From IMG/VR virus record IMGVR_UViG_3300033144_001147, positions 1 to 61,738 of that record: DNA of 61,738 nucleotides, one strand, 5' to 3'. Both the position numbers and the translations under genes were made by a program. The notes under the pieces are model-generated. The model did not search any database. It was not told the origin of the DNA and saw nothing but the letters and a program-made list of their open reading frames with translations. Below, one piece after another: positions 16,477 through 45,985 of this stretch; position 1 is the first letter of the stretch; each line of letters opens with the position of its first letter. The stretch comes from a virus. Lineage: Duplodnaviria; Caudoviricetes.

Positions 16477-17637
16477 TTATACTTTTTTTATACTTCTAAT
16501 TTTGAGTCCTTTTCCACTGCTTGAGTCGCCTACCGATCTAATCTTTAAACCATCTTTACTGAAACTTTGTGGAGTTTTACGCATATCCATATTAATGTTT
16601 TTTGACTTCTTAGTAACATCATCTACAGCTGCGGTCATTCCTTGATTGTAACAAAATTCAGCAAACTTGTCTAAATTCATCGCTACAGACATAGCTTTAT
16701 GATATCCTTGAGGGTCAGTCATTAGTCCGCTTTCTTTATCCATGAATTTACCCACGAAATTATTAACATCAGACTGTTTACTTTTTAACTCATCTCTATC
16801 ACCCGGCTTGAAGGTAAAATTTTTGTCTCCGATATTGAACTCAAAACCTTTGAACTCATCGTTAAAAACCTCGTTGGTTTTATTTACAAAATAATCGTAC
16901 CTTTTTTTCTGCGCTTCCTGTGCACTTTTCGATTCCTCTATATAACTTTTATAGCCTTCTATCTCTTTCTTCTCATCGGCTGACAATCCACCCCCGCTTG
17001 ACCCAAGAGGAGCTTTATATTTGTCTCGCTGTTCAGTTAGAAACTTTTTAGCTTTAACAAGTTCTCTTTTTTTAGCTAACTGCTTTTTCTTAATATCTTT
17101 TGGTTCGTCCAAATCTTCATCGTAAGAAAATTTATCCTCAATGATATCTTGAATATCCTCACTATCTAAACCTTCTTCAGTGGTTTTATAGTAAGCTGTT
17201 AGCACTTTGTCTCCGTCCATTTCTTCGTAGTCTTTTTGTAATTCTACAAAGTCATTGATACCTCGACCTGTTTCTTTTTTATATTTAAAATATGCCGCTA
17301 CATCTTCTGGTAAGTCTTCATTTGTTTCTTTCGCATCAAATAATTGATCTACCGATTCGATATCTTTATCATATCTTTTTTTAATATAAGAAAGAACTTC
17401 TGCATCATTTAACTCTGGTGCGGGAGTTTCTTCTTGTGCTTCTCCTTCCGATTGTACTTCTTTTTGTTCCGGAATGGTTTCGGCACTCGTAGAGCTTGTA
17501 TCCACTCGCTCCACGTTAGGGTTACTTTCTGTATCTTGGAATTTTTCTTCATGTTCCTTAAGTAATTTTTCTTCTACTTCTACTTTGGATTTTTCAGCTC
17601 CCGATACGTCTTTTACTGTAAATTTATTCTCTTCCAT
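16477..17637 (-). CDS. Capsid scaffolding protein, 386 aa
   Basis: Acidic and helical, between portal and capsid; -7 element TAACTTTG at 17658-17665. Confidence 0.75.
   Translation of the reverse strand: MEENKFTVKDVSGAEKSKVEVEEKLLKEHEEKFQDTESNPNVERVDTSSTSAETIPEQKEVQSEGEAQEETPAPELNDAEVLSYIKKRYDKDIESVDQLFDAKETNEDLPEDVAAYFKYKKETGRGINDFVELQKDYEEMDGDKVLTAYYKTTEEGLDSEDIQDIIEDKFSYDEDLDEPKDIKKKQLAKKRELVKAKKFLTEQRDKYKAPLGSSGGGLSADEKKEIEGYKSYIEESKSAQEAQKKRYDYFVNKTNEVFNDEFKGFEFNIGDKNFTFKPGDRDELKSKQSDVNNFVGKFMDKESGLMTDPQGYHKAMSVAMNLDKFAEFCYNQGMTAAVDDVTKKSKNINMDMRKTPQSFSKDGLKIRSVGDSSSGKGLKIRSIKKV
17409..17552 (-). CDS. Overprinted 47-aa basic peptide (ArfA-like) in the +1 frame of the scaffold gene
   Basis: MKKNSKIQKVTLTWSEWIQALRVPKPFRNKKKYNRKEKHKKKLPHQS; ATG preceded by TAAGGAAC. 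Confidence 0.6.
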   Translation of the reverse strand: MKKNSKIQKVTLTWSEWIQALRVPKPFRNKKKYNRKEKHKKKLPHQS

Positions 17638-33892: not shown

Positions 33893-34175
33893 ATCTTTTT
33901 ATTTTAAATTTTAATACATTACATTTCGGGTACAAATACTGAAGAATCTTAAGTCTATGATTTCCTTGAACCACCCAATACTTTCCTTCTTTCTTAGTAA
34001 CCTCTATTAATTCTTTTAATCCGTTATTATCTATATCGTGCAAAAGCCCAGTCCAATCATAACCTCTATCATTAGTTATTAACTGATGTATAGTGTAATT
34101 AGTAAAGTCTCCATTAATATCACAAAGTCTAATATACTCTGTAGTATACTGACTTTTATAATATTTTTTACTCAT
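33876..34175 (-). CDS. ParB/Srx-like N-terminal domain protein, 99 aa
   Basis: DIDNNGLKELIEV...YWVVQGNHRLKIL (GxxR box). Confidence 0.65.
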   Translation of the reverse strand: MSKKYYKSQYTTEYIRLCDINGDFTNYTIHQLITNDRGYDWTGLLHDIDNNGLKELIEVTKKEGKYWVVQGNHRLKILQYLYPKCNVLKFKIKRYETNR

Positions 34176-35790
34176 CCTTATTTATTCTCGCGTGAGTAAT
34201 TATAGCGTTAGTAGTTAATATGGTAGTAGCTACACTAATAGCGTTAGACAATGCTTGAGTGGTTACTCTTGCTGGATCAATAACCCCCATATCAAACATA
34301 TTTCCATACTCTCCTGTTACCACGTTATATCCTATATTCTTTTTTTGTTTAGTAGTAAGGCCTCCTTCTGGAAGATTAGGAATAAACCCTGGCTTATCAT
34401 ATATATCTTTTTTATCTAATCCTGCATTTTTTAGAATTTGACGTAAAGGAGCTTCTAAAGCTTCTTTTAATATTTTATGAGAAGTCTTTTTGCCATTATA
34501 AGTTTGAGCTATATTGTATAATAACAACCCTCCTCCTGGCACAATTCCTTCTTGAAGGGCACTGCGCACCGCGCATACCGAGTCATCGACTCGGTCAAAT
34601 TTTTCTTTTTGTTCTATGTCAGATGTAGCACCTACATGTATACATCCTATCCCTCCAACTAAAGAAGCTATTCTTTCATTAATAAAATCCTTCTCATGTT
34701 TAGCTGTTAATCTTTCTTGTTGGTCTCTTAATTCTTCTACTCTATCAATAGTCTCATTAGTAATCTCTCCGTCTTTAATAATGATAGTAGAGTCTTTACC
34801 TACTATAATCTTATCTGCATGCCCTAAGTCTTCCATTCTAATTAGAGATAAATCATCTCCTGTTTTTTCAGAAAAGTATTTAGCTCCTACAGAAAATGCT
34901 ATGTCTTGCATTAACTCGTGAGTTTTATATCCAAATGACGGAGGTTGTATATTACAAAACTTTAATCCATTTCTTTGAACATTGGCTGCCATTGTATTAA
35001 TAACATTCTGTCCGCAATCTCCAATAATTAAAAGCTTGTCTCCCGCATTAATAATAGGTTTTAATATATTCTCAATTTGTAATATGTTACTAATCTCTGA
35101 ATCACATATAAGAATCTTCACTCCTTCATATACACACTCGTCTTTTCTTTGGTCATTAATAAACATAGGAGAAGTCCATCCTCTATCTACTTTAATACCA
35201 TTAGTTACTTCAGCAAAAGTCTTATCTGTTTGAGATCGCTCTACAGTTACTATCCCATCTTTACCAACTTCTTTATATGCTTTAGCTATAATCTCACCAA
35301 TCTCTTTATCATTATTCGCAGAGATGGTTGCTATATCTTCTAACATATTCTCAGTAACCTCAACAGCCTCTGTCTTTATTTTATTATCTATTATCTCTCC
35401 TTGAACTCTGAGCTCTCTAATTATTTTAATTTTATTATCTCCTTCTTTTATATGTTTCTGACCAGCCTTCACTAAAGCTTCAGTTAATACAATAGCAGTA
35501 GTTGTTCCATCACCAGCGGTATTAGCTGTTTTTTCAGAAGCTTGTTTCATCATTCTAACCGCAAGGTTTTCGATTGGGTCAATAAGAGATATTGATTTAG
35601 CTACAGTTACTCCATCTTTAGTAACGGTTAATCCTTGAGTATGTTCTGTTGATTCTATCAATACAGTTTGCCCTTGAGGGCCAAGAGTTGATTTAACTGC
35701 ATTAGATATTTTAGAGATTCCCGAGGTAAGCTTTGTTCTTGCGTCTTCATTAAACGCTAAGTCTTTTGGAATGTATCCAGAGTCTTTCAT
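34168..35790 (-). CDS. groEL: Chaperonin GroEL, 540 aa
   Basis: TLGPQG, VTKDGVTVAKSI, AGDGTTTA, EGIVPGGG, GVIDPARVT. Confidence 0.97.
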   Translation of the reverse strand: MKDSGYIPKDLAFNEDARTKLTSGISKISNAVKSTLGPQGQTVLIESTEHTQGLTVTKDGVTVAKSISLIDPIENLAVRMMKQASEKTANTAGDGTTTAIVLTEALVKAGQKHIKEGDNKIKIIRELRVQGEIIDNKIKTEAVEVTENMLEDIATISANNDKEIGEIIAKAYKEVGKDGIVTVERSQTDKTFAEVTNGIKVDRGWTSPMFINDQRKDECVYEGVKILICDSEISNILQIENILKPIINAGDKLLIIGDCGQNVINTMAANVQRNGLKFCNIQPPSFGYKTHELMQDIAFSVGAKYFSEKTGDDLSLIRMEDLGHADKIIVGKDSTIIIKDGEITNETIDRVEELRDQQERLTAKHEKDFINERIASLVGGIGCIHVGATSDIEQKEKFDRVDDSVCAVRSALQEGIVPGGGLLLYNIAQTYNGKKTSHKILKEALEAPLRQILKNAGLDKKDIYDKPGFIPNLPEGGLTTKQKKNIGYNVVTGEYGNMFDMGVIDPARVTTQALSNAISVATTILTTNAIITHARINKDE

Positions 35791-35821
35791 TGTGTTGTGA
35801 TTTAATTAAATTTAATTTGTG

Positions 35822-35829
35822 CAAAGATA
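35822..35829 (-). promoter_or_regulatory. -7 element of the groEL operon
   Basis: TATCTTTG. Confidence 0.65.
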
Positions 35830-35848
35830 TAAAAATAATAATTACAAT

Positions 35849-36040
35849 TGTGACGGTATGTCGAAATAAATTTTCTATATTGTATATATATATAACTCTC
35901 CTATCTCTATATATATTTTTATATATTTTGTATTTCAAATCGACATATCGACATAAATAAATATAATAGATTGAAAATCAATAAGTTAGTTTGTGTCGTT
36001 TTTTTTTACAAAGTGGAATCTTGTGTCGATGTTTGACATA
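35849..36040. repeat. Iteron-like element A (TGTCGA/TCGACA repeats around an AT-rich core)
   Basis: TATGTCGAAATA, 71-nt AT-rich spacer, TCGACATATCGACA, AATCAATAAGTTA, further TGTGTCG copies. Confidence 0.7.
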
Positions 36041-36045
36041 GATAT

Positions 36046-36082
36046 AAAAAAAAGAGGCAGACTGAATGTCTTACCTCCTTTT
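36046..36082 (-). terminator. Intrinsic terminator
   Basis: Imperfect GAGG-AGAC/GTCT-CCTC stem with flanking A8 and T4. Confidence 0.55.
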
Positions 36083-36106
36083 CACAACAGAACAAATGGG
36101 ATTCTT

Positions 36107-36325
36107 TTAGAACTCTAACTCTCTCCAGTTCTTTTTATCTTCAGCTAATTCTATACCTTCAGCTATTCTATTTATTTTTCTATCGTTTGTTACTGCTCTT
36201 TTGATACGCGCGGCTTTTGCTATACCGGTTTCTCCATCTCTTCTTTCGTTCATTAGTCTTCCGTCTTTAACATAAAGTCCGTCAACGTTGTCAGATCCAA
36301 TAAAAGGGTTTGTCATTTTTTTCAT
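36107..36325 (-). CDS. Hypothetical protein, 72 aa (first gene of the minus-strand arm)
   Basis: Own -7 element at 36341-36348. Confidence 0.7.
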   Translation of the reverse strand: MKKMTNPFIGSDNVDGLYVKDGRLMNERRDGETGIAKAARIKRAVTNDRKINRIAEGIELAEDKKNWRELEF

Positions 36326-36431
36326 AGTTCTAATTTTTTACAAAGATATAAAATTTTTTTAGATGTCTGGGGGTTGAGGGTTATTATAGGTGATACGATG
36401 GAAGTCCGGTATAGAAAAGTGATTTGTTTTT

Positions 36432-36612
36432 TGGGGGTGGGGGTGTTGTTTTCAAAATTTCCAGTCCGATTTTTTGGGGTTTTTCTGGTGGTGGTTGGTT
36501 GTGTGTGTGTGTGTCTGGTTGTGGTGGTGGTTGTGGTGGTGGTTGTTCCTCTGTCTGTCTGTCTGTCTGTCTGTTTCTCTGTCCGTCCGTCCTCCTTCCC
36601 TCGTTCCGTTCG
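36432..36612. repeat. Strand-skewed simple-repeat tract at the transcription divergence point
   Basis: GGGGGT x2, (GGT)n, (GT)n, (CTGT)n, (GTCC)n; no A on the + strand from about 36470 to 36612. Confidence 0.85.
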
Positions 36613-36841
36613 AAGATCTTAAATAATATGTATATAAATACATTAAATTGTTAAACCTTCCCCCAATTAATCGACTAAATAAAACATTTAGACACTGAAA
36701 GAAAGGGAATAATACCCCCACGAACACACCGAAACACAAACAAAACACCAAGAAAACACAAATTTTTTTTCTCTCTAACTACCTGAACATCAACAACTTA
36801 AAAATTATTTTCACACTGGGACAAAAATAAAACAAAAATTG

Positions 36842-36874
36842 TTTGTTTATATTAAAATAAATATACTATCTTTG
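36842..36874 (+). promoter_or_regulatory. Early promoter 1
   Basis: TTTG-N21-TATCTTTG, the full Bacteroidota -33/-7 consensus. Confidence 0.8.
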
Positions 36875-36921
36875 AACAATAATTAAACAAATAATAATAA
36901 TAAATTAAAAAGTTTACAACT

Positions 36922-37227
36922 ATGAAAAATTCAGTAAGACAAGAACTAACCGAACACATTAACGATTTCCAAAGAGATGAACAAAATCATTTTACAATGT
37001 TTAACGAGGACTATTATATAATAGGATATTACCAGTCTGAACAATGGTTAAAACTTCATAACATTGGAGAACTGGAAGGAGTTAATATATGTAATGAGTA
37101 TGAGATGGAACATTTCGGAGAGATACAAACAACATTCGACAACACCGAAAAACTGGTAAATCATCTTGTTTACTGGTTCGGACAAGATCTTTGTAATGAG
37201 TTAAACATTCCATTTGATAGAGAATAA
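36922..37227 (+). CDS. First early gene, acidic; candidate Ocr-like anti-restriction DNA mimic, 101 aa
   Basis: Acidic helical protein (FNEDYYIIGYYQSEQWL...EYEMEHFGE...EKLVNHLVYWFG); function inferred. Confidence 0.5.
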   Translation: MKNSVRQELTEHINDFQRDEQNHFTMFNEDYYIIGYYQSEQWLKLHNIGELEGVNICNEYEMEHFGEIQTTFDNTEKLVNHLVYWFGQDLCNELNIPFDRE

Positions 37228-37229
37228 AA

Positions 37230-37283
37230 GTTAATCTGATGAGGACTAAATGTCCGAAACTGGAAGAAATTCCAGTCATTAAC
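37230..37283 (+). ncRNA. Hammerhead ribozyme, type I (HH1)
   Basis: GTTAAT-CTGATGA-GGAC taaat GTCC-GAAA-CTGGAA gaaa TTCCAG-TC-ATTAAC: full core, three perfect stems, GUC cleavage after 37277. Confidence 0.93.
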
Positions 37284-37308
37284 AAATAATTAAATAAATA
37301 AAAAAGTT

Positions 37309-37563
37309 ATGAAAAAATGTATTTTTATAGGTAGTCTTGTTTTCTTCTCTTCTTGTGGGATAGGACACCTAACAACCGAACAACGAGGGGAGATAAACAA
37401 GATAGACAAACAAATGGATGAGTTATGGATTAATTACTCTTACTCAATCGATAGTTTGTATATTAAAAGGGATAGTATCATAGAGAACAACGGAAAATTC
37501 AAAGAATGTTGTATAAAAACCTCTAATGATGTGTATAAACATGAAGGACTAACAATAGAATAA
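37309..37563 (+). CDS. Putative lipoprotein, 84 aa
   Basis: MKK-hydrophobic-FFSS|C signal peptidase II-type signal. Confidence 0.65.
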   Translation: MKKCIFIGSLVFFSSCGIGHLTTEQRGEINKIDKQMDELWINYSYSIDSLYIKRDSIIENNGKFKECCIKTSNDVYKHEGLTIE

Positions 37564-37565
37564 TT

Positions 37566-37841
37566 ATGAACTTACCTAAAATATCAAACATAATCGGACA
37601 CGGAGGAAACGAGGTAAAAAATCAGTTTATCATCCGAACTAAAGGAACAACAATTTTTCAGTCTTACGATAGTATTATTTGTATGATTAATCATAACACC
37701 GGAATAACTACACTGGACAAAAATTACTGGGACTACTCAACAACAACCGGAAAATATAGAAATATATTTTTAGGAGAGAGTAAACAAGATACGGAAAAGA
37801 AAATAAAATCAAAAGAGTATAAACTAAAAAACCTTAATTAA
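37566..37841 (+). CDS. Early hypothetical protein, 91 aa
   Basis: NQFII...FQSYDSII...WDYSTTTGKYRNIFLG. Confidence 0.8.
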   Translation: MNLPKISNIIGHGGNEVKNQFIIRTKGTTIFQSYDSIICMINHNTGITTLDKNYWDYSTTTGKYRNIFLGESKQDTEKKIKSKEYKLKNLN

Positions 37842-37842
37842 G

Positions 37843-37971
37843 ATGAACTACCAAGAAAATGAAATATCGTATTGTGTAAACTATAAAGGACAAAAAATAA
37901 AACCTTATAGGAGTTTACCGACATTACCTAAACCGAGTTTAATTAGAAGAATAATAAACTTTTTTAAGTAA
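37843..37971 (+). CDS. Early hypothetical protein, 42 aa (not on track)
   Basis: MNYQENEISYCVNYKGQKIKPYRSLPTLPKPSLIRRIINFFK. Confidence 0.6.
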   Translation: MNYQENEISYCVNYKGQKIKPYRSLPTLPKPSLIRRIINFFK

Positions 37972-38021
37972 TACTGATGAGTGTTTAATACACGAAACTG
38001 GTAGAAATACCAGTCTATTAC
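37968..38021 (+). ncRNA. Hammerhead ribozyme, type I (HH2)
   Basis: GTAATA-CTGATGA-GTGT ttaat ACAC-GAAA-CTGGTA gaaa TACCAG-TC-TATTAC; GUC cleavage after 38015. Confidence 0.93.
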
Positions 38022-38039
38022 AATAAAAAATATATAAAA

Positions 38040-38357
38040 ATGAAGACAAAAGAAGATATTAAATCTGAAATGATGAGGGACTCTGACTTTAGACAAGAGT
38101 TAAAAAGTGTTTTACTTATAGACTCAAATGTAAAATCAGTTAGACAAAGAATGGAAACAACCCTATCAAATATACAATATCAAAAGGGAGTTATGATGTG
38201 GGATGATGAGGAGAAAATTGAACATTGTATTGAGATACTTAAAATACTGGAGTATGAAACAACACCAGTATATGAGGATCAATGTTGGGATTGTAGAGAG
38301 GATATACAATACACGGACTTACATCCCTTTTGTCCGGAATGTAATCAACACCAATAA
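38040..38357 (+). CDS. Early protein with C-terminal zinc ribbon, 105 aa
   Basis: CWDC...CPEC. Confidence 0.7.
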   Translation: MKTKEDIKSEMMRDSDFRQELKSVLLIDSNVKSVRQRMETTLSNIQYQKGVMMWDDEEKIEHCIEILKILEYETTPVYEDQCWDCREDIQYTDLHPFCPECNQHQ

Positions 38358-43925: not shown

Positions 43926-44325
43926 TATAGAAGATGTGTTTGAACAATCTCAAAAAGATCATCACGCAATTATCACGGACAAAGGAGCAATCAACAATGG
44001 AGTAAAAATACAAAAGTTCCCCTCCAAAACCGAGATCTTAAATTGTGGGAGGAGTGGAGATTATTTTCAAGAGTGTAATAAAGAAGAGTATAAAATTTTT
44101 TTTAAGTATGGATGGAAGGAAGGAGGGTTAAGACTATCAATGTTGAATTGCAAAAGAAAGTTAGACATTGTGGAGCATAAAATAAAGGCTGAAGTAAATA
44201 CAAGAAAGAATGATAAACATATACAAAGATTAAAAAATACAAGAGAGTCTTTATTAATAAAATATTCAAATAGAAATCAACAATTAAATAAATTAACAAA
44301 TGGAAAAAAAGAAAAACATTTTTAA
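43918..44325 (+). CDS. Hypothetical protein, 135 aa
   Basis: Operon-packed ORF. Confidence 0.7.
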   Translation: MYSIEDVFEQSQKDHHAIITDKGAINNGVKIQKFPSKTEILNCGRSGDYFQECNKEEYKIFFKYGWKEGGLRLSMLNCKRKLDIVEHKIKAEVNTRKNDKHIQRLKNTRESLLIKYSNRNQQLNKLTNGKKEKHF

Positions 44326-44911
44326 GGAATTATCATCCATATCTATAAAAGGTAAAACCGATAAGAAAGGAAAGTTTGATTATTTATCATGGGCTTCAGC
44401 GTGGAGTATGATTAAATCAGAACACCCTGAAGCACAAAGAAAAGTATATGAGTCTCAAGAAACTGGACTTAACTTTTTTACTGATGGTAAAACTGCTTAT
44501 GTAAAAGTAGGTATAACTATAAATAATTTAGAGCATATAGATTATTTACCAGTAATGGATTACCGAAACAACTCAATATCTATGGATAAGATTAATTCTA
44601 TGGATGTTAATACAGCCATTCAACGATCTACTGCCAAGGCAATTGCGATGCACGGATTAGGATTAAGTTTATGGATAGGAGAAGATACTATAATAACAAC
44701 TAAACCGGTTTCAACTCCATCCAGTAAAACTCCTACACCAACAAAAGATGCTAAAATAACTTTAGATATAGGAGATAACAACTGGGGTAAGGTATTAAAA
44801 TATATAGCTTCTAATAAAGAATTAGGATTACCTAAAATAGTAAAGAATTTAGAGACTAAATATAATATAAAGGCGGTAGTAAAAAAAGAACTCTCAAAAC
44901 AAATTAAATAA
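44300..44911 (+). CDS. Sak/Rad52-like single-strand annealing protein (DUF1071), 203 aa
   Basis: YLSWASAW...LPVMDYRN...DVNTAIQRSTAKAIAMHGLGLSLWIGED. Confidence 0.85.
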   Translation: MEKKKNIFKELSSISIKGKTDKKGKFDYLSWASAWSMIKSEHPEAQRKVYESQETGLNFFTDGKTAYVKVGITINNLEHIDYLPVMDYRNNSISMDKINSMDVNTAIQRSTAKAIAMHGLGLSLWIGEDTIITTKPVSTPSSKTPTPTKDAKITLDIGDNNWGKVLKYIASNKELGLPKIVKNLETKYNIKAVVKKELSKQIK

Positions 44912-45246
44912 TGGAAAAAATACCGGGGATAAAAGCTTTAATTAAAGATAAATTAGATAAACTTAACTGGGTTCAATGGGATGGATCAGGGATTACCAGT
45001 GAAGAGGGTTTTGTAGTTTGGGTAGACTATATGGAAAATATAGGGGTAGATAAAGATACTAATCAACTCTTAATTAATATAAAGTATAAAGGTCAGCCAG
45101 TATACACAACCGCAACTACTGATAAAGATACTATGGATTATTTTGGTGTATGGTATATGCAGTTAGGAGATATAATAAACGAGAGAAATGAAAAGAGAGA
45201 TAAGGAGGCGGAGGAAGAGGGTAAAATAAAATTTGAAAAACTATAA
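44911..45246 (+). CDS. Hypothetical protein, 111 aa
   Basis: Coupled to the annealing-protein gene. Confidence 0.7.
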   Translation: MEKIPGIKALIKDKLDKLNWVQWDGSGITSEEGFVVWVDYMENIGVDKDTNQLLINIKYKGQPVYTTATTDKDTMDYFGVWYMQLGDIINERNEKRDKEAEEEGKIKFEKL

Positions 45247-45985
45247 TATGGATAAAGACTTACAATTATTAAAAGAGGATGAACATTATTACGGAAAGTT
45301 TGGAAAACAATTTTTATCTAATTCCGATATAATCACTTTACTAAACGATCCTAAAAGTTTTGGAACTGAAAAGGTTATGACAAAGGCTATGTTGATTGGA
45401 AGATATTTTCATACAGCAATGTTGGAGCCGGAGAAAATTGATAGTGTAGAATATTGGACTATTGATGCTTCCAGTAGAAATACTAAAAAATACAAAGAAG
45501 AACTACTCCATTACAAAAGGCCTTTAATGATGTTGTCTAAAGAAAAGATTGAGATTGATAAAGCTATCAGTACTATGAAAAACAATTTGGAATTTTATGA
45601 GTCAATATATGATGAAGAAAATGAGTTCGAAGTTCCTGCAATACACGAGGTAATGGGAATGAAATGGAAGGGAAAGGCGGATATAGTGGGAAAAGATTTT
45701 TTAATTGATCTAAAAACTACATCTAACATAAAAGACTTTAAGTATAGTGCGAGAAAATATAACTATGATAGTCAAGCGTATTTATACCAACAATTCTTTA
45801 ATAGACCTCTTGTTTTTTATGTGGTAGACAAACTAACGTTTGAGTTAGGGATATATCATCCCTCTGAAACTTTTTTAAGTTATGGAAAAGATAAAGTTGA
45901 ACGAGCAATAGAAGTATATAAAAAATTTTTTAGCAATGAATCTACGGAAGATATTGAAACTTATATTATTAAAGAAATACTTTAA
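45233..45985 (+). CDS. PD-(D/E)XK exonuclease (RecE/ExoVIII-like, DUF3799); start may be ATG 45248
   Basis: LSNSDI...GRYFHTAMLEP...KGKADI...IDLKTT...YNYDSQAYLY. Confidence 0.85.
   Translation: MKNYNMDKDLQLLKEDEHYYGKFGKQFLSNSDIITLLNDPKSFGTEKVMTKAMLIGRYFHTAMLEPEKIDSVEYWTIDASSRNTKKYKEELLHYKRPLMMLSKEKIEIDKAISTMKNNLEFYESIYDEENEFEVPAIHEVMGMKWKGKADIVGKDFLIDLKTTSNIKDFKYSARKYNYDSQAYLYQQFFNRPLVFYVVDKLTFELGIYHPSETFLSYGKDKVERAIEVYKKFFSNESTEDIETYIIKEIL

Follow-up and report, generated by a model that had tools for sequence, protein, structure and literature searches.

RNAs of the hammerhead class cleave themselves 3′ of residue H17, leaving a 2′,3′-cyclic phosphate and a 5′-OH. The early transcript of phage T7 is divided in another way: the host RNase III cuts double-stranded stems between the cistrons, so that the individual mRNAs are released, each with a structured 3′ end. 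What most genome-encoded hammerheads do for their carriers is still an open question (PMC6765202). The closest described systems are the clustered hammerheads of phages and prophages reported by Perreault 2011 (PMC3088659), where same-orientation copies with a canonical core flank single genes or short blocks of variable identity. According to that report, three tandem prophage arrangements were cleaved in vitro, and a role in mRNA processing was proposed, whereby long phage transcripts are cut down to mRNAs the length of a gene. The idea that clustered phage hammerheads process polycistronic RNA is therefore not new but dates from 2011.

The locus described here shows the same clustering: two same-orientation copies, whose predicted cuts are separated by 738 nt (37278-38015), flank three small ORFs. 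Unlike the prophages tested in PMC3088659 (Clostridium scindens, Azorhizobium caulinodans and Agrobacterium tumefaciens), which are reported there to carry mixed types, all copies in the present set are of type I, bear a 6-bp stem I capped by A residues, and belong to a clade of lytic-type Flavobacteriaceae podophages. Their placement is unusually regular for a known idea. In the main text of PMC3088659, as distinct from its supplementary alignments, the terms “stop codon” and “translation” do not occur, and the stop/start phasing is not discussed.

Structure and detection of the two hammerheads

The window, i.e., the whole stretch of DNA that was analysed, represents a complete 61.7 kb genome of a marine Flavobacteriaceae phage, a relative of the Flavobacterium Elemovirus. 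Two hammerheads, HH1 and HH2, lie on the sense strand of the early genes (+), amid small ORFs (Table 1). Most early genes of the window have no hammerhead upstream.

Table 1. Coordinates of the hammerheads, their leaders and the surrounding features in the window
Feature	Position	Strand	Description
Promoter-like box TATCTTTG	36867..36874	+	sole copy on this strand in the module at 36.4-52.4 kb; the transcript carrying both hammerheads putatively starts in this region
First ORF of the module	36922..37227	+	101 aa, phrog_10208, function unknown; stop TAA 37225-37227, 2 nt before HH1
HH1, predicted type I hammerhead ribozyme	37230..37283	+	evidence: sequence, scanner, model R2 (74.7 bits), family covariation
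HH1 leader	37278..37308	+	31 nt, A/U-rich, no SD-like motif; predicted 5′ end (5′-OH) of the HH1 3′ product
84-aa ORF	37309..37563	+	first gene of the 738-nt inter-cut segment; lipoprotein-like N-terminus; no Pfam or PHROG match
91-aa ORF	37566..37841	+	phrog_21575, function unknown
42-aa ORF	37843..37971	+	stop TAA 37969-37971, inside HH2 stem I
HH2, predicted type I hammerhead ribozyme	37968..38021	+	evidence: sequence, scanner, model R2 (71.6 bits), 114-nt fold
HH2 leader	38016..38039	+	24 nt, A/U-rich; predicted 5′ end of the HH2 3′ product
105-aa ORF	38040..38357	+	downstream of HH2; no family match (Pfam, PHROG)

HH1 reads GTTAAT / CTGATGA / GGAC-TAAAT-GTCC / GAA / ACTGGAA-GAAA-TTCCAGT / C / ATTAAC. 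Its stem I is formed by 37230-37235 with 37278-37283, and between the two arms lie the CUGAUGA core (37236-37242), the stem II hairpin (37243-37255), the GAA (37256-37258), the stem III hairpin (37259-37276) and C17 at 37277, so that cleavage is predicted at 37277/37278. HH2 reads GTAATA / CTGATGA / GTGT-TTAAT-ACAC / GAA / ACTGGTA-GAAA-TACCAGT / C / TATTAC, with stem I formed by 37968-37973 and 38016-38021, C17 at 38015 and the predicted cleavage at 38015/38016. In both copies, stems I, II and III comprise 6, 4 and 7 bp, respectively (the last count includes the A15.1-U16.1 pair), the loop of stem III is GAAA, and stem I is capped by unpaired A residues, at 37229 and 37284 in HH1 and at 37967 and 38022 in HH2.

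Three helices emanate from a central junction, with all 17 predicted pairs formed in HH1 as well as in HH2. Both copies match the hammerhead core exactly (C3 U4 G5 A6 N7 G8 A9 / G12 A13 A14 / A15.1-U16.1 / H17, which is not G) and have the topology of type I, where the 5′ and 3′ ends enter via stem I and loops close stems II and III. The letters of the two copies differ in all three stems, and yet the pairing is complete in both. An earlier note on this DNA had described a pair of complete hammerheads of type I whose stems show compensatory changes; the structures presented here bear out both points, and the comparative evidence, including covariation within the family, agrees with them.

A structure-aware scanner applied to both strands of the whole genome found only HH1 and HH2. 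In 1000 first-order Markov random windows, the same scanner gave 94 matches when stems of at least 4/3/3 bp were accepted, and none with stems of at least 5/4/5 or at least 6/4/7 bp. The covariance model R2, built from the relatives’ copies only and run with filters off, recovered HH1 with an E-value of 6.9e-22 and HH2 with 7.5e-21, the next best match in the genome scoring 11.5 bits. Rfam at gathering thresholds gave no matches in the window. The top-scoring Rfam family for both copies was the RAGATH-1 hammerhead RF03152, with 29.1 bits for HH1 and 23.6 bits for HH2 vs. the gathering threshold of 56.3, while for Hammerhead_1 (RF00163), HH1 reached 18.7 bits vs. the threshold of 34 and HH2 was not listed at E ≤ 10; both copies thus fall outside these two families as Rfam delimits them. 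When HH1 is aligned to the RF03152 model, its 5′ hairpin contains non-standard pairs and its stem II is a regular 4-bp helix. The earlier note had suggested a search with the Rfam hammerhead models as a check; their matches remained below the thresholds, whereas the relatives-only covariance model retrieved both ribozymes.

Folding of HH2 in its 114-nt context yielded the full three-way junction as both the MFE and the centroid structure. In the 114-nt context of HH1, the 3′ arm pairs with an upstream GUUAA instead. When the 54-nt sequences were folded alone, the canonical junction was not the MFE structure, in that HH1 shifted stem I and HH2 mispaired stem II. None of the known tertiary contacts between stem I and loop II was identified in HH1 or HH2, so that activity at physiological Mg2+ is an assumption. 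Pairing of loop II with the flanks in a Watson-Crick pseudoknot, either RAGATH-1-like or Perreault-type, is not supported, since the mean best run was 3.25-3.62 vs. 3.39-3.71 for loops of shuffled letters. Candidate elements for a tertiary contact are nevertheless conserved, namely loop II, with the form U-N-A-A-U in 18 of the 40 rows of the family alignment, the 6-bp stem I and the flanking A.

Conservation, covariation and stop/start phasing

Further copies, 58 in all, are present in 26 of 50 related loci. With the model R1, the window and these loci gave 60 matches at E ≤ 1, every one of them on the sense strand of the early genes, with no match on the opposite strand. In the structural alignment A3 (Infernal, 40 distinct rows), 98.6% of the cells were paired vs. 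59.3% in shuffles (reached in 0/500) and 21-46% with slid partners, counts that are favoured by the fitting of the alignment to the model. The covariation score was 0.796 vs. 0.157 in shuffles (again reached in 0/500). Double-sided changes occur in 14 of the 17 pairs, the three invariant ones being G10.1-C11.1, A15.1-U16.1 and C15.2-G16.2. The core residues C3, U4, G5, A6, G8, A9, G12, A13 and A14 are invariant in 40/40 rows; N7 is the only variable core position (U in 32 rows, A in 3, C in 5), and H17 is C in 38 rows, A in 2 and never G.

Ten near-complete relatives bear 0-9 copies per genome, always in a single cluster on a single strand, with up to nine copies within ~5 kb. Such variation in copy number among close relatives indicates that no individual site is essential. 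The copies are more alike within genomes than between them: identity is 0.68 vs. 0.46 for stem I, 0.45 vs. 0.28 for stems II/III and 0.48 vs. 0.41 for the leaders. In one relative, L037, three copies share the stem I GTAACA/TGTTAC. Special selection for an identical stem I within a genome was nevertheless rejected, because stems II/III and the leaders are also more alike within genomes, for which simple intragenomic duplication suffices. An exact scan of viral contigs for a near-identical stem III found nothing.

One copy resides in a cultured phage, Flavobacterium phage vB_FspP_elemoA_7-9A (host Flavobacterium sp. BAL314), where the predicted cut would leave a 5′-OH end 28 nt ahead of the gp69 ATG. 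The RefSeq record (NC_055852.1, around 17200-17450) annotates this ribozyme site as a protein gene of 35 aa, placed on the wrong strand. An annotation gap is thereby exposed, where Rfam thresholds miss the ribozymes and RefSeq calls such a site a protein gene. Among the other cultured relatives, Cellulophaga phage phi38:1 gave no match, and MW202828.1, phi13:2 and Tenacibaculum phage Gundel_1 gave only chance-level matches of at most 14 bits.

The ribozymes are positioned strictly with respect to the ORFs. In the window, each lies at the stop codon of the preceding ORF (Table 1), and the next ATG follows the predicted cut by 31 nt after HH1 (37309) and by 24 nt after HH2 (38040). None of the 60 copies of the clade is spanned by an ORF of at least 60 aa. 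The upstream stop codon is found from −10 to +9 nt relative to the hammerhead start in 50/54 copies, and the next ATG 18-35 nt past the cut in 38/53 (rows not de-duplicated in any of these counts). An analogous picture was obtained with a wide set of 210 distinct copies from unrelated viral and prokaryote contigs, where a stop codon lies within −21..+10 in 166/203 cases vs. 17/198 at random positions, and an ATG 10-45 nt downstream in 137/195 vs. 29/201. The distance from the cut to the ATG peaks at 20-29 nt (101/195), and in all 50 multi-copy loci the copies occupy one strand. Stem I comprises exactly 6 bp in 214/225 copies, with an unpaired A beside it on the 5′ side in 196/209 and on the 3′ side in 201/210. 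Thus, the placement proposed in the earlier note, in the sense orientation at a stop codon with the cut 24-31 nt before the next ATG, agrees with the coordinates and extends to the relatives and to the 210 wider copies.

Proposed processing of the transcript and rival explanations

The box TATCTTTG at 36867 resembles what we take to be the Bacteroidota −7 promoter element, with the consensus TAnnTTTG. It occurs at ten sites genome-wide. Two of these are on the plus strand (36867 and 59174), and the other eight fall on the opposite strand inside the block of minus-strand genes, among them one at 35822, upstream of GroEL, and one at 36341, ahead of a 72-aa ORF. The motif TANNTTTG is not enriched in the genome (93 matches vs. 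82 ± 9 expected), and a sigma-70 promoter scan gave 26 sites vs. 25.0 ± 5.6 in shuffles. No plus-strand terminator-like sites were found at 36.9-40 kb. Together with the gene layout, the lone box and the lack of such sites point to early genes that are probably read as one polycistronic transcript. As for the products, the translation of the 84-aa ORF contains, in our reading, a putative lipobox (MKKCIFIGSLVFFSSCG), and Pelagibacter podophages hold DNA homologous to the 91-aa ORF.

Judging from the sequence, we consider it highly probable that HH1 and HH2 are catalytically competent type I hammerheads that would cut the polycistronic early RNA into gene- or cassette-length mRNAs. Protein-free processing of polycistronic mRNA, which the earlier note had inferred and likened to the role of the RNase III sites in T7, is the best-supported reading in our analysis, and it matches the proposal made in PMC3088659. 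A long plus-strand transcript would start probably at ~36880, and each ribozyme would fold during transcription and cut itself 3′ of C17. The upstream cistron would keep a structured 3′ end composed of the stem II and stem III hairpins plus the 2′,3′-cyclic phosphate, and the downstream cistron would begin with a 5′-OH, followed by 24-31 nt of A/U-rich leader, short and unstructured. Stem I, being weak with its 6 A/U-rich pairs, would let the products part, and we propose that the cut becomes effectively irreversible in this way. The net effect would be a protein-free split of the polycistronic RNA, whereby stability and the translation start region are insulated from the neighbours, mRNA by mRNA, presumably to the benefit of the phage.

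A second explanation refines this one more than it excludes it, and we regard it as a real possibility, though short of probable. Here, the main selected role would not be mRNA separation in itself but the setting of a 5′ end close to the next start codon and at a constant distance from it, with cleavage needed for, or strongly boosting, downstream translation, and the 5′ arm lying over the upstream stop would couple folding to ribosome traffic. The sharp peak in the cut-to-ATG distance, in the wide set as well as in the clade, and the overlap or abutment of the ribozyme with the upstream stop speak for such a role. In addition, the hosts belong to the Bacteroidota, in which ribosomes take no notice of SD and mRNA structure tunes initiation, as described in PMC6847099 and PMC13000453, and the leaders of the clade are A/U-rich, with an SD-like motif in 0/32. 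In the wider viral set, however, 69/146 leaders have SD-like motifs, about half, which means that such a device is not confined to hosts blind to SD; specificity to SD-less hosts as a general rule was therefore rejected. When the HH1 leader was compared with 12,338 genome windows, the promoter-proximal leader 36881-36921 matched best (score 42; mean 12.3, 99.9th percentile 33), suggesting that cleavage recreates a 5′ UTR like that of the primary transcript. Against this, an ordinary gene leader near 2019 nearly ties, the HH2 leader has no similar match among the genome windows, and the hammerhead is missing upstream of most early genes. A parallel comes from the type I hammerheads in the 5′ UTRs of fungal RNA viruses, reported as needed for translation initiation (PMC13725137).

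According to a third explanation, which we hold to be improbable, the sites are junctions of recombination or mobile cassettes: the ~56-nt ribozyme and its leader would serve as a shared homology patch for swaps of early-gene cassettes, RNA cleavage being secondary. The promoter-terminator cassettes (PeSL) of T4-type phages offer a comparison for this reading (PMC2839356, PMC4122927, as far as these sources describe them). The early module is indeed extremely mosaic: the BLAST coverage by 50 relatives, ~30 loci deep at 35.8-36.4 kb, shrinks to 0-4 loci beyond 36.4 kb, and the gene order is permuted relative to the relative L013, whose homology stops inside HH1, at 37261. Another relative, L006, shares only HH1 and its leader (37226-37315, 85.7%) while the flanking genes differ, and its HH1-like copy is preceded by a stretch homologous to the 42-aa ORF, which in the window precedes HH2 instead. 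Among the proteins of the phage are a single-strand annealing protein (Sak) and a PDDEXK nuclease, and the greater likeness of copies within genomes would also fit. This evidence comes from two junctions only, and a homology patch needs neither an invariant catalytic core nor compensatory stem changes or a strict sense orientation; moreover, the copies diverge so strongly in their stems that identical stretches are short.

Very improbable, in our estimation, is that the two ends of the 738-nt segment 37278-38015 are joined to each other, or that the segment is spliced, through ligation by the hammerhead itself or by a host RtcB-type ligase. The 5′-OH and 2′,3′-cyclic phosphate ends suit such ligations, and an identical stem I in several copies of some relatives, as in L037, would permit arm swapping, but in the window, the HH1 3′ arm AUUAAC pairs with the HH2 5′ arm GUAAUA at 3/6 positions, with the core-proximal pair lost, and the phage genome has no match to RtcB (PF01139) or RNA ligase (PF09414). 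Perreault 2011 raised this possibility, and the circular or spliced products sought there are reported as not detected (PMC3088659). Equally hard to credit are structures without catalysis (3′-end stabilisers, pause or termination signals) or decaying relics: sub-threshold Rfam scores, the dispensability of individual copies and the lack of an identified canonical tertiary contact would suit them, but no T-run follows the hairpins, and a single-stranded core invariant save for N7, an H17 that is never G and the fixed G10.1-C11.1 and A15.1-U16.1 pairs are explained by catalysis and not by a hairpin function.

Returning to protein-free mRNA processing, we tentatively put forward an extended form of it, itself rather doubtful, in which a ~56-nt type I hammerhead acts as a widespread phage “intercistronic insulator” whose cleavage would license translation of internal cistrons by means of a primary-transcript-like 5′ end. 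It would be defined by a stem I of exactly 6 bp with an A cap at either side, by a stem II of 4 bp whose loop is often U-N-A-A-U, by a 5′ arm that covers the stop codon of the preceding ORF, and by a cut placed 20-29 nt ahead of the following start codon. On the same reading, ribosomes that finish translating the preceding ORF could modulate the ribozyme folding.

Comparison with known systems

Three features seem to be unpublished: the phasing to stop and start codons, the 6-bp stem I with its A caps, and the cultured-phage copy that carries a gene annotation. As a natural example, the clade is unusually clean, with up to nine copies, strict stop/start phasing and a cultured phage-host pair, vB_FspP_elemoA_7-9A and Flavobacterium sp. 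BAL314, in which cleavage, mRNA stability and translation become measurable. If cleavage proved necessary for downstream translation, this would provide a link to the ribozyme-dependent translation of RNA viruses and a natural precedent for synthetic insulators. If the insulator reading were true, self-cleaving RNA would be a general, promoter-independent way to build and shuffle independently expressed cassettes in phages of many hosts.

As with the RNase III sites of T7, the intercistronic cuts would split one early polycistronic RNA. T7, however, relies on a host protein enzyme, which leaves a 5′-phosphate and a 3′-OH, whereas here the RNA is predicted to cut itself, leaving a 5′-OH and a 2′,3′-cyclic phosphate. 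With RF03152 and RF00163, the present copies share an open stem I (type I) and the CUGAUGAG...CGAAAC...GUC core; in RAGATH-1 (RF03152), there is an additional hairpin on the 5′ side and stem II is minimal, in contrast to the regular 4-bp stem II and the lack of a conserved 5′ hairpin found here.

The hammerhead insulator RiboJ, which by the title of the report raises downstream gene expression (PMC6206723), likewise lies just upstream of a translation start and strips the upstream RNA context to give a constant 5′ UTR. RiboJ was obtained by engineering a satellite-RNA hammerhead of type III, to which a hairpin was added, whereas the present elements are natural, of type I and overlap the upstream stop. 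The chrysovirus and fusarivirus 5′ UTR hammerheads, as described in PMC13725137, are also of type I, directly precede ORFs and have no obvious loop-loop contact, and there is a link between their cleavage and the translation of the ORF that follows. These are eukaryotic RNA viruses with cap-independent translation and a helix II of 0-2 or 6-8 bp, in contrast to the DNA phage and the typical 4 bp here. Finally, HHphage of haloviruses HF1/HF2 resembles the present copies in lying in the early region of a lytic virus a short distance upstream of a start codon, at 13 nt, with a mapped transcript 5′ end near the cleavage site; it is reported as a core variant from an archaeal virus, present as a single copy at the transcript start and not between cistrons (PMC3088659).

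Genome context and gene phasing of the two hammerheads

The window spans an entire IMG/VR virus record (61,738 bp), which has direct terminal repeats and a completeness rating of 100%. Its terminase is nearest to that of an uncultured podovirus (73%), followed by Flavobacterium phages of the genus Elemovirus (45.6%) and then by Cellulophaga, Tenacibaculum and Maribacter phages; because of these relatives, the predicted host is a member of the Flavobacteriaceae. Among 50 related contigs found with the phage GroEL, this protein is 51-86% identical in 49, and 36% in the remaining one, L054. The stretch 35790-36427, comprising the GroEL upstream region, a 72-aa ORF and the next ~100 nt, is kept in about 30 of the 50 relatives, and everything downstream is mosaic.

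Features of the window and insertion-bearing hammerhead copies of its relatives
Feature	Location	Strand	Remarks
Minus-strand gene block	1-35,790	-	includes large terminase, portal, crAss-muzzle-like protein, phage GroEL
Phage GroEL chaperonin	34168-35790	-	phrog_5725, E 3.3e-134
72-aa ORF	36107-36325	-	conserved; no PHROG match
Upstream ~100 nt of 72-aa ORF	36310-36427		78-92% identity even in distant relatives
G/T-rich simple-sequence tract	36360-36600	+	between divergent modules; (TGG)n, (TG)7, 12-mer TGGTTGTGGTGG x2.6, (TCTG)10
(AAACACAAACA)x2.8 array	36732-36762		after the G/T-rich tract
Small-ORF module	from ~36.4 kb	+	then Sak annealing protein, PDDEXK nuclease, primase/helicase, helicase, to 52.4 kb
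HH1	37230-37283	+	GTTAAT-CTGATGA-GGAC(TAAAT)GTCC-GAA-ACTGGAA(GAAA)TTCCAGT-C-ATTAAC
84-aa ORF	37309-37563	+	first gene after HH1; lipoprotein-like signal (MKKCIFIGSLVFFSSCG); no family match
HH2	37968-38021	+	GTAATA-CTGATGA-GTGT(TTAAT)ACAC-GAA-ACTGGTA(GAAA)TACCAGT-C-TATTAC
Sak (PF06378) adjoining PDDEXK-like nuclease (DUF3799)	44300-45985	+	Sak is a single-strand annealing protein
Giant ORF, at least 2,919 aa	52784-61738	-	runs off record end (record has terminal repeats); no PHROG match, Pfam only sub-threshold GA-like match
Copies with stem III loop insertions	L013 7912-8006, 8205-8307; L040 8429-8513; L036 3307-3393; L035 249-347, 570-669	-	insertions of 30-60 nt

The plus-strand module harbours both hammerheads, HH1 0.3 kb and HH2 1.1 kb into it. 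The motif TATCTTTG, which we take to resemble the Bacteroidota -7 promoter box, is found on the minus strand upstream of GroEL and of the conserved 72-aa ORF, and on the plus strand of the small-ORF module at a single site, 36867, 48 nt before the first ORF. The G/T-rich tract is positioned just upstream of this putative early promoter. Since there is one such promoter-like box and the plus strand shows no terminator-like site from 36.9 to 40 kb, a single long transcript across both ribozymes is plausible.

A 101-aa ORF ends with its stop codon 2 nt before HH1, whose predicted cut (37277/37278) precedes the ATG of the 84-aa lipoprotein-like ORF by 31 nt. HH2 contains in its stem I the stop codon of a 42-aa ORF, and its predicted cut (38015/38016) precedes the ATG of a 105-aa ORF by 24 nt; 738 nt and three small ORFs separate the two cuts. 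Judging from its signal, the 84-aa product could be a superinfection-exclusion-type early protein. The earlier note had placed both copies at a stop codon and in the sense orientation, cutting 24-31 nt before the next ATG, which was upheld in the window and is mirrored in the relatives. For the 60 family copies, with near-identical genomes retained and ORFs called simply as the longest from an ATG, no ORF of at least 60 aa runs across a ribozyme. Of the 54 copies with a nearby ORF, 50 have the upstream stop between -10 and +9 nt relative to the ribozyme start, and the next ATG lies 18-35 nt past the predicted cut in 38 of 53.

Structure, significance and conservation of the ribozymes

A sequence check gave an exact match to what the earlier note had described for both stretches. 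HH1 and HH2 are type I hammerheads with an open stem I of 6 bp, a stem II of 4 bp whose first pair is G10.1-C11.1, and a stem III of 7 bp including A15.1-U16.1; the core comprises C3-U4-G5-A6-U7-G8-A9 and G12-A13-A14, with C17 as the nucleotide at the cleavage site. A residues flank stem I in both copies.

A structure-aware scanner applied to both strands of the window returned HH1 and HH2 as its sole matches, and over 1000 random windows from a first-order Markov model it produced 94 loose matches (stems of at least 4/3/3) and none with stems of at least 5/4/5 or 6/4/7. Furthermore, a covariance model built from the relatives' copies only, applied to the entire window with its filters switched off, scored HH1 at 74.7 bits (E 6.9e-22) and HH2 at 71.6 bits (E 7.5e-21), the runner-up reaching 11.5 bits. 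Rfam, whose hammerhead models the earlier note named as a check, missed both sites, giving no match in the window at gathering thresholds; its best family, RAGATH-1 hammerhead (RF03152), scored them at 29.1 and 23.6 bits vs. a gathering score of 56.3, and Hammerhead_1 (RF00163) scored HH1 only (18.7 bits vs. a threshold of 34).

To assess conservation, 50 related viral loci were gathered via the GroEL protein. In 23 of these loci the scanner detected a total of 44 type I hammerheads, which without exception lie on the opposite strand to GroEL, matching the window, and a covariance model seeded with seven 54-nt copies yielded 60 matches (E<=1) in the window and 26 loci, 60 sense and 0 antisense. 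From these matches, 40 distinct rows were structurally aligned, with the caveat that this alignment was fitted to the structure of the model. Standard pairs occupy 98.6% of the cells vs. 59.3% in column shuffles, a level that 0 of 500 shuffles reached, and only 21-46% are paired when the partners are slid. Both sides change in 14 of the 17 pairs, the invariant ones being G10.1-C11.1, A15.1-U16.1 and C15.2-G16.2. The compensatory change proposed from HH1 and HH2, whose stem sequences differ with the pairing kept, is thus borne out in the relatives. The single-stranded core is identical in all 40 rows except N7 (U in 32, A in 3, C in 5), the sole core position of hammerheads known to tolerate any base, and H17 is C in 38, A in 2 and G in none. 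At the level of sequence, this core pattern is a signature of selection for catalysis and not for hairpins alone. An extra U between A9 and G10.1 occurs in five rows, and some family copies, all on the minus strand, carry insertions of 30-60 nt in the stem III loop.

Thermodynamic models predict canonical folding only partly: HH2 in its context gave the three-way junction, and HH1 kept stems II and III, its 3′ arm being able to pair with an upstream GUUAA. No canonical contact between stem I and loop II was found; candidates for it are loop II, conserved as U-N-A-A-U in 18 of 40 distinct rows, the A residues on either side of stem I and the constant 6-bp length of that stem. Watson-Crick pairing of loop II with the flanks to form a pseudoknot was also tested and is unsupported.

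Ten near-complete relatives bear 2, 4, 9, 2, 2, 2, 1, 0, 2 and 0 copies, always on one strand and in one cluster of up to ~5 kb. In a relative that has been cultured, Flavobacterium phage vB_FspP_elemoA_7-9A (NC_055852.1), a single strong copy (54 bits) occupies 17290-17347 on the minus strand, 28 nt before the gp69 ATG. The gp68 of this phage, a 35-aa hypothetical protein annotated over the hammerhead on the opposite strand (17275-17382, plus; L066 2776-2883), is probably a spurious gene call. Taken together, these comparisons allow us to conclude that HH1 and HH2 are real, conserved hammerhead ribozymes, almost certainly active by prediction.

A wider scan used the core together with a 4-bp stem II closed by a U-N-A-A-U loop as its pattern. 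Matches came from at least 120 viral contigs and, among prokaryote genome representatives of many phyla, from 44 stretches, some of the latter being short MAG contigs and possibly phage DNA. Conservation of loop II in this set is not independent, as it was part of the search pattern; stem I length, flanking A residues and gene phasing are independent of it. Among the matches listed, a complete type I hammerhead is found in 118 of the 120 viral loci and in 26 of the 44 from prokaryote genomes. Of the 225 copies in these matches, 214 have a stem I of exactly 6 bp, and in all 50 loci with at least two copies these share one strand. Gene context was counted for 210 distinct copies, again among the matches listed: an upstream stop lies -21 to +10 nt from the start in 166/203 copies vs. 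17/198 random positions, the next ATG 10-45 nt past the predicted cut in 137/195 vs. 29/201 (20-29 nt in 101/195), A flanks stem I on the 5′ side in 196/209 and on the 3′ side in 201/210, and a sense ORF of at least 60 aa spans 10/210. The pattern also occurs in archaeal MAG contigs, namely L201 and L230 (Nitrosopumilus MAG chromosome OY759726.1), L204 (Promethearchaeota MAG) and L223 (Nitrososphaerota MAG), of which at least L201 has a complete type I copy by scanner; these may be provirus or mis-binned viral DNA.

Proposed processing, alternatives and known systems

The ribozyme would fold during transcription and cut after C17. In the upstream mRNA, over 40 nt would separate the retained stop codon from a new 3′ end bearing two hairpins and a cyclic phosphate, and the downstream mRNA would start with a 5′-OH, six nucleotides of the former stem I and an A/U-rich leader. 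An SD-like motif was found in 0 of 32 leaders of the clade, which fits hosts whose ribosomes are described as ignoring the SD and relying on low mRNA structure for initiation (PMC6847099, PMC13000453). Among the viral matches listed in the wider scan, such a motif is present in 69 of 146 leaders; therefore, the device is not tied to SD-ignoring hosts. Compared with 12,338 genome windows, the HH1 leader best matches the promoter-proximal leader at 36881 (score 42; mean 12.3, 99.9th percentile 33; 29 identities in 33 aligned columns, 2 gaps), and one other gene leader comes close to a tie. Cleavage may thus restore to an internal cistron a 5′UTR resembling that of a primary transcript, but this match is suggestive only; the HH2 leader had no comparable match among the genome windows.

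The ribozyme-plus-leader unit may also serve as a junction for cassette shuffling, as has been described for the PeSL elements of T4-type phages, to which we liken it (PMC2839356, PMC4122927). The early module is strongly mosaic, and the phage encodes the Sak and PDDEXK recombination genes, a pair that may drive this mosaicism. Moreover, L006 shares only HH1 and its leader with the window (85.7% over 37226-37315), its copy being preceded by a homologue of the ORF located before HH2 in the window, and the homology of L013 stops within HH1. A recombination junction, however, leaves the invariant core unexplained. Circularisation of the 738-nt fragment is unlikely: swapped stem I arms pair at only 3/6 positions, the phage encodes no RtcB or RNA ligase, and Perreault et al. 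report that no circular or spliced products were detected (PMC3088659). A purely structural, non-catalytic role is contradicted by the core conservation.

Elements of this kind are already known, and the mRNA-processing role put forward in the earlier note repeats a proposal made by Perreault et al. and taken up in later literature. Of interest here are the strict stop/start phasing, an A-capped 6-bp stem I subclass missed by Rfam, a copy number ranging from 0 to 9 within a mosaic early module, and the availability of a cultured phage for a functional test. No paper combining 'hammerhead' with 'Flavobacterium phage' turned up in a full-text literature search; the main text of Perreault et al. 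does not mention stop codons or translation, and its supplementary alignments may hold members of the subclass. That study proposed that hammerheads process long transcripts of phages into mRNAs the length of an operon or a gene, and it reported in vitro cleavage for three tandem arrangements (PMC3088659), and later reviews repeat mRNA processing as an open hypothesis (PMC6765202). A 2026 paper describes DNA-encoded type I hammerheads in bacteria and phages, as well as type I hammerheads in the 5′UTRs of RNA viruses, where they are required for translation initiation (PMC13725137).
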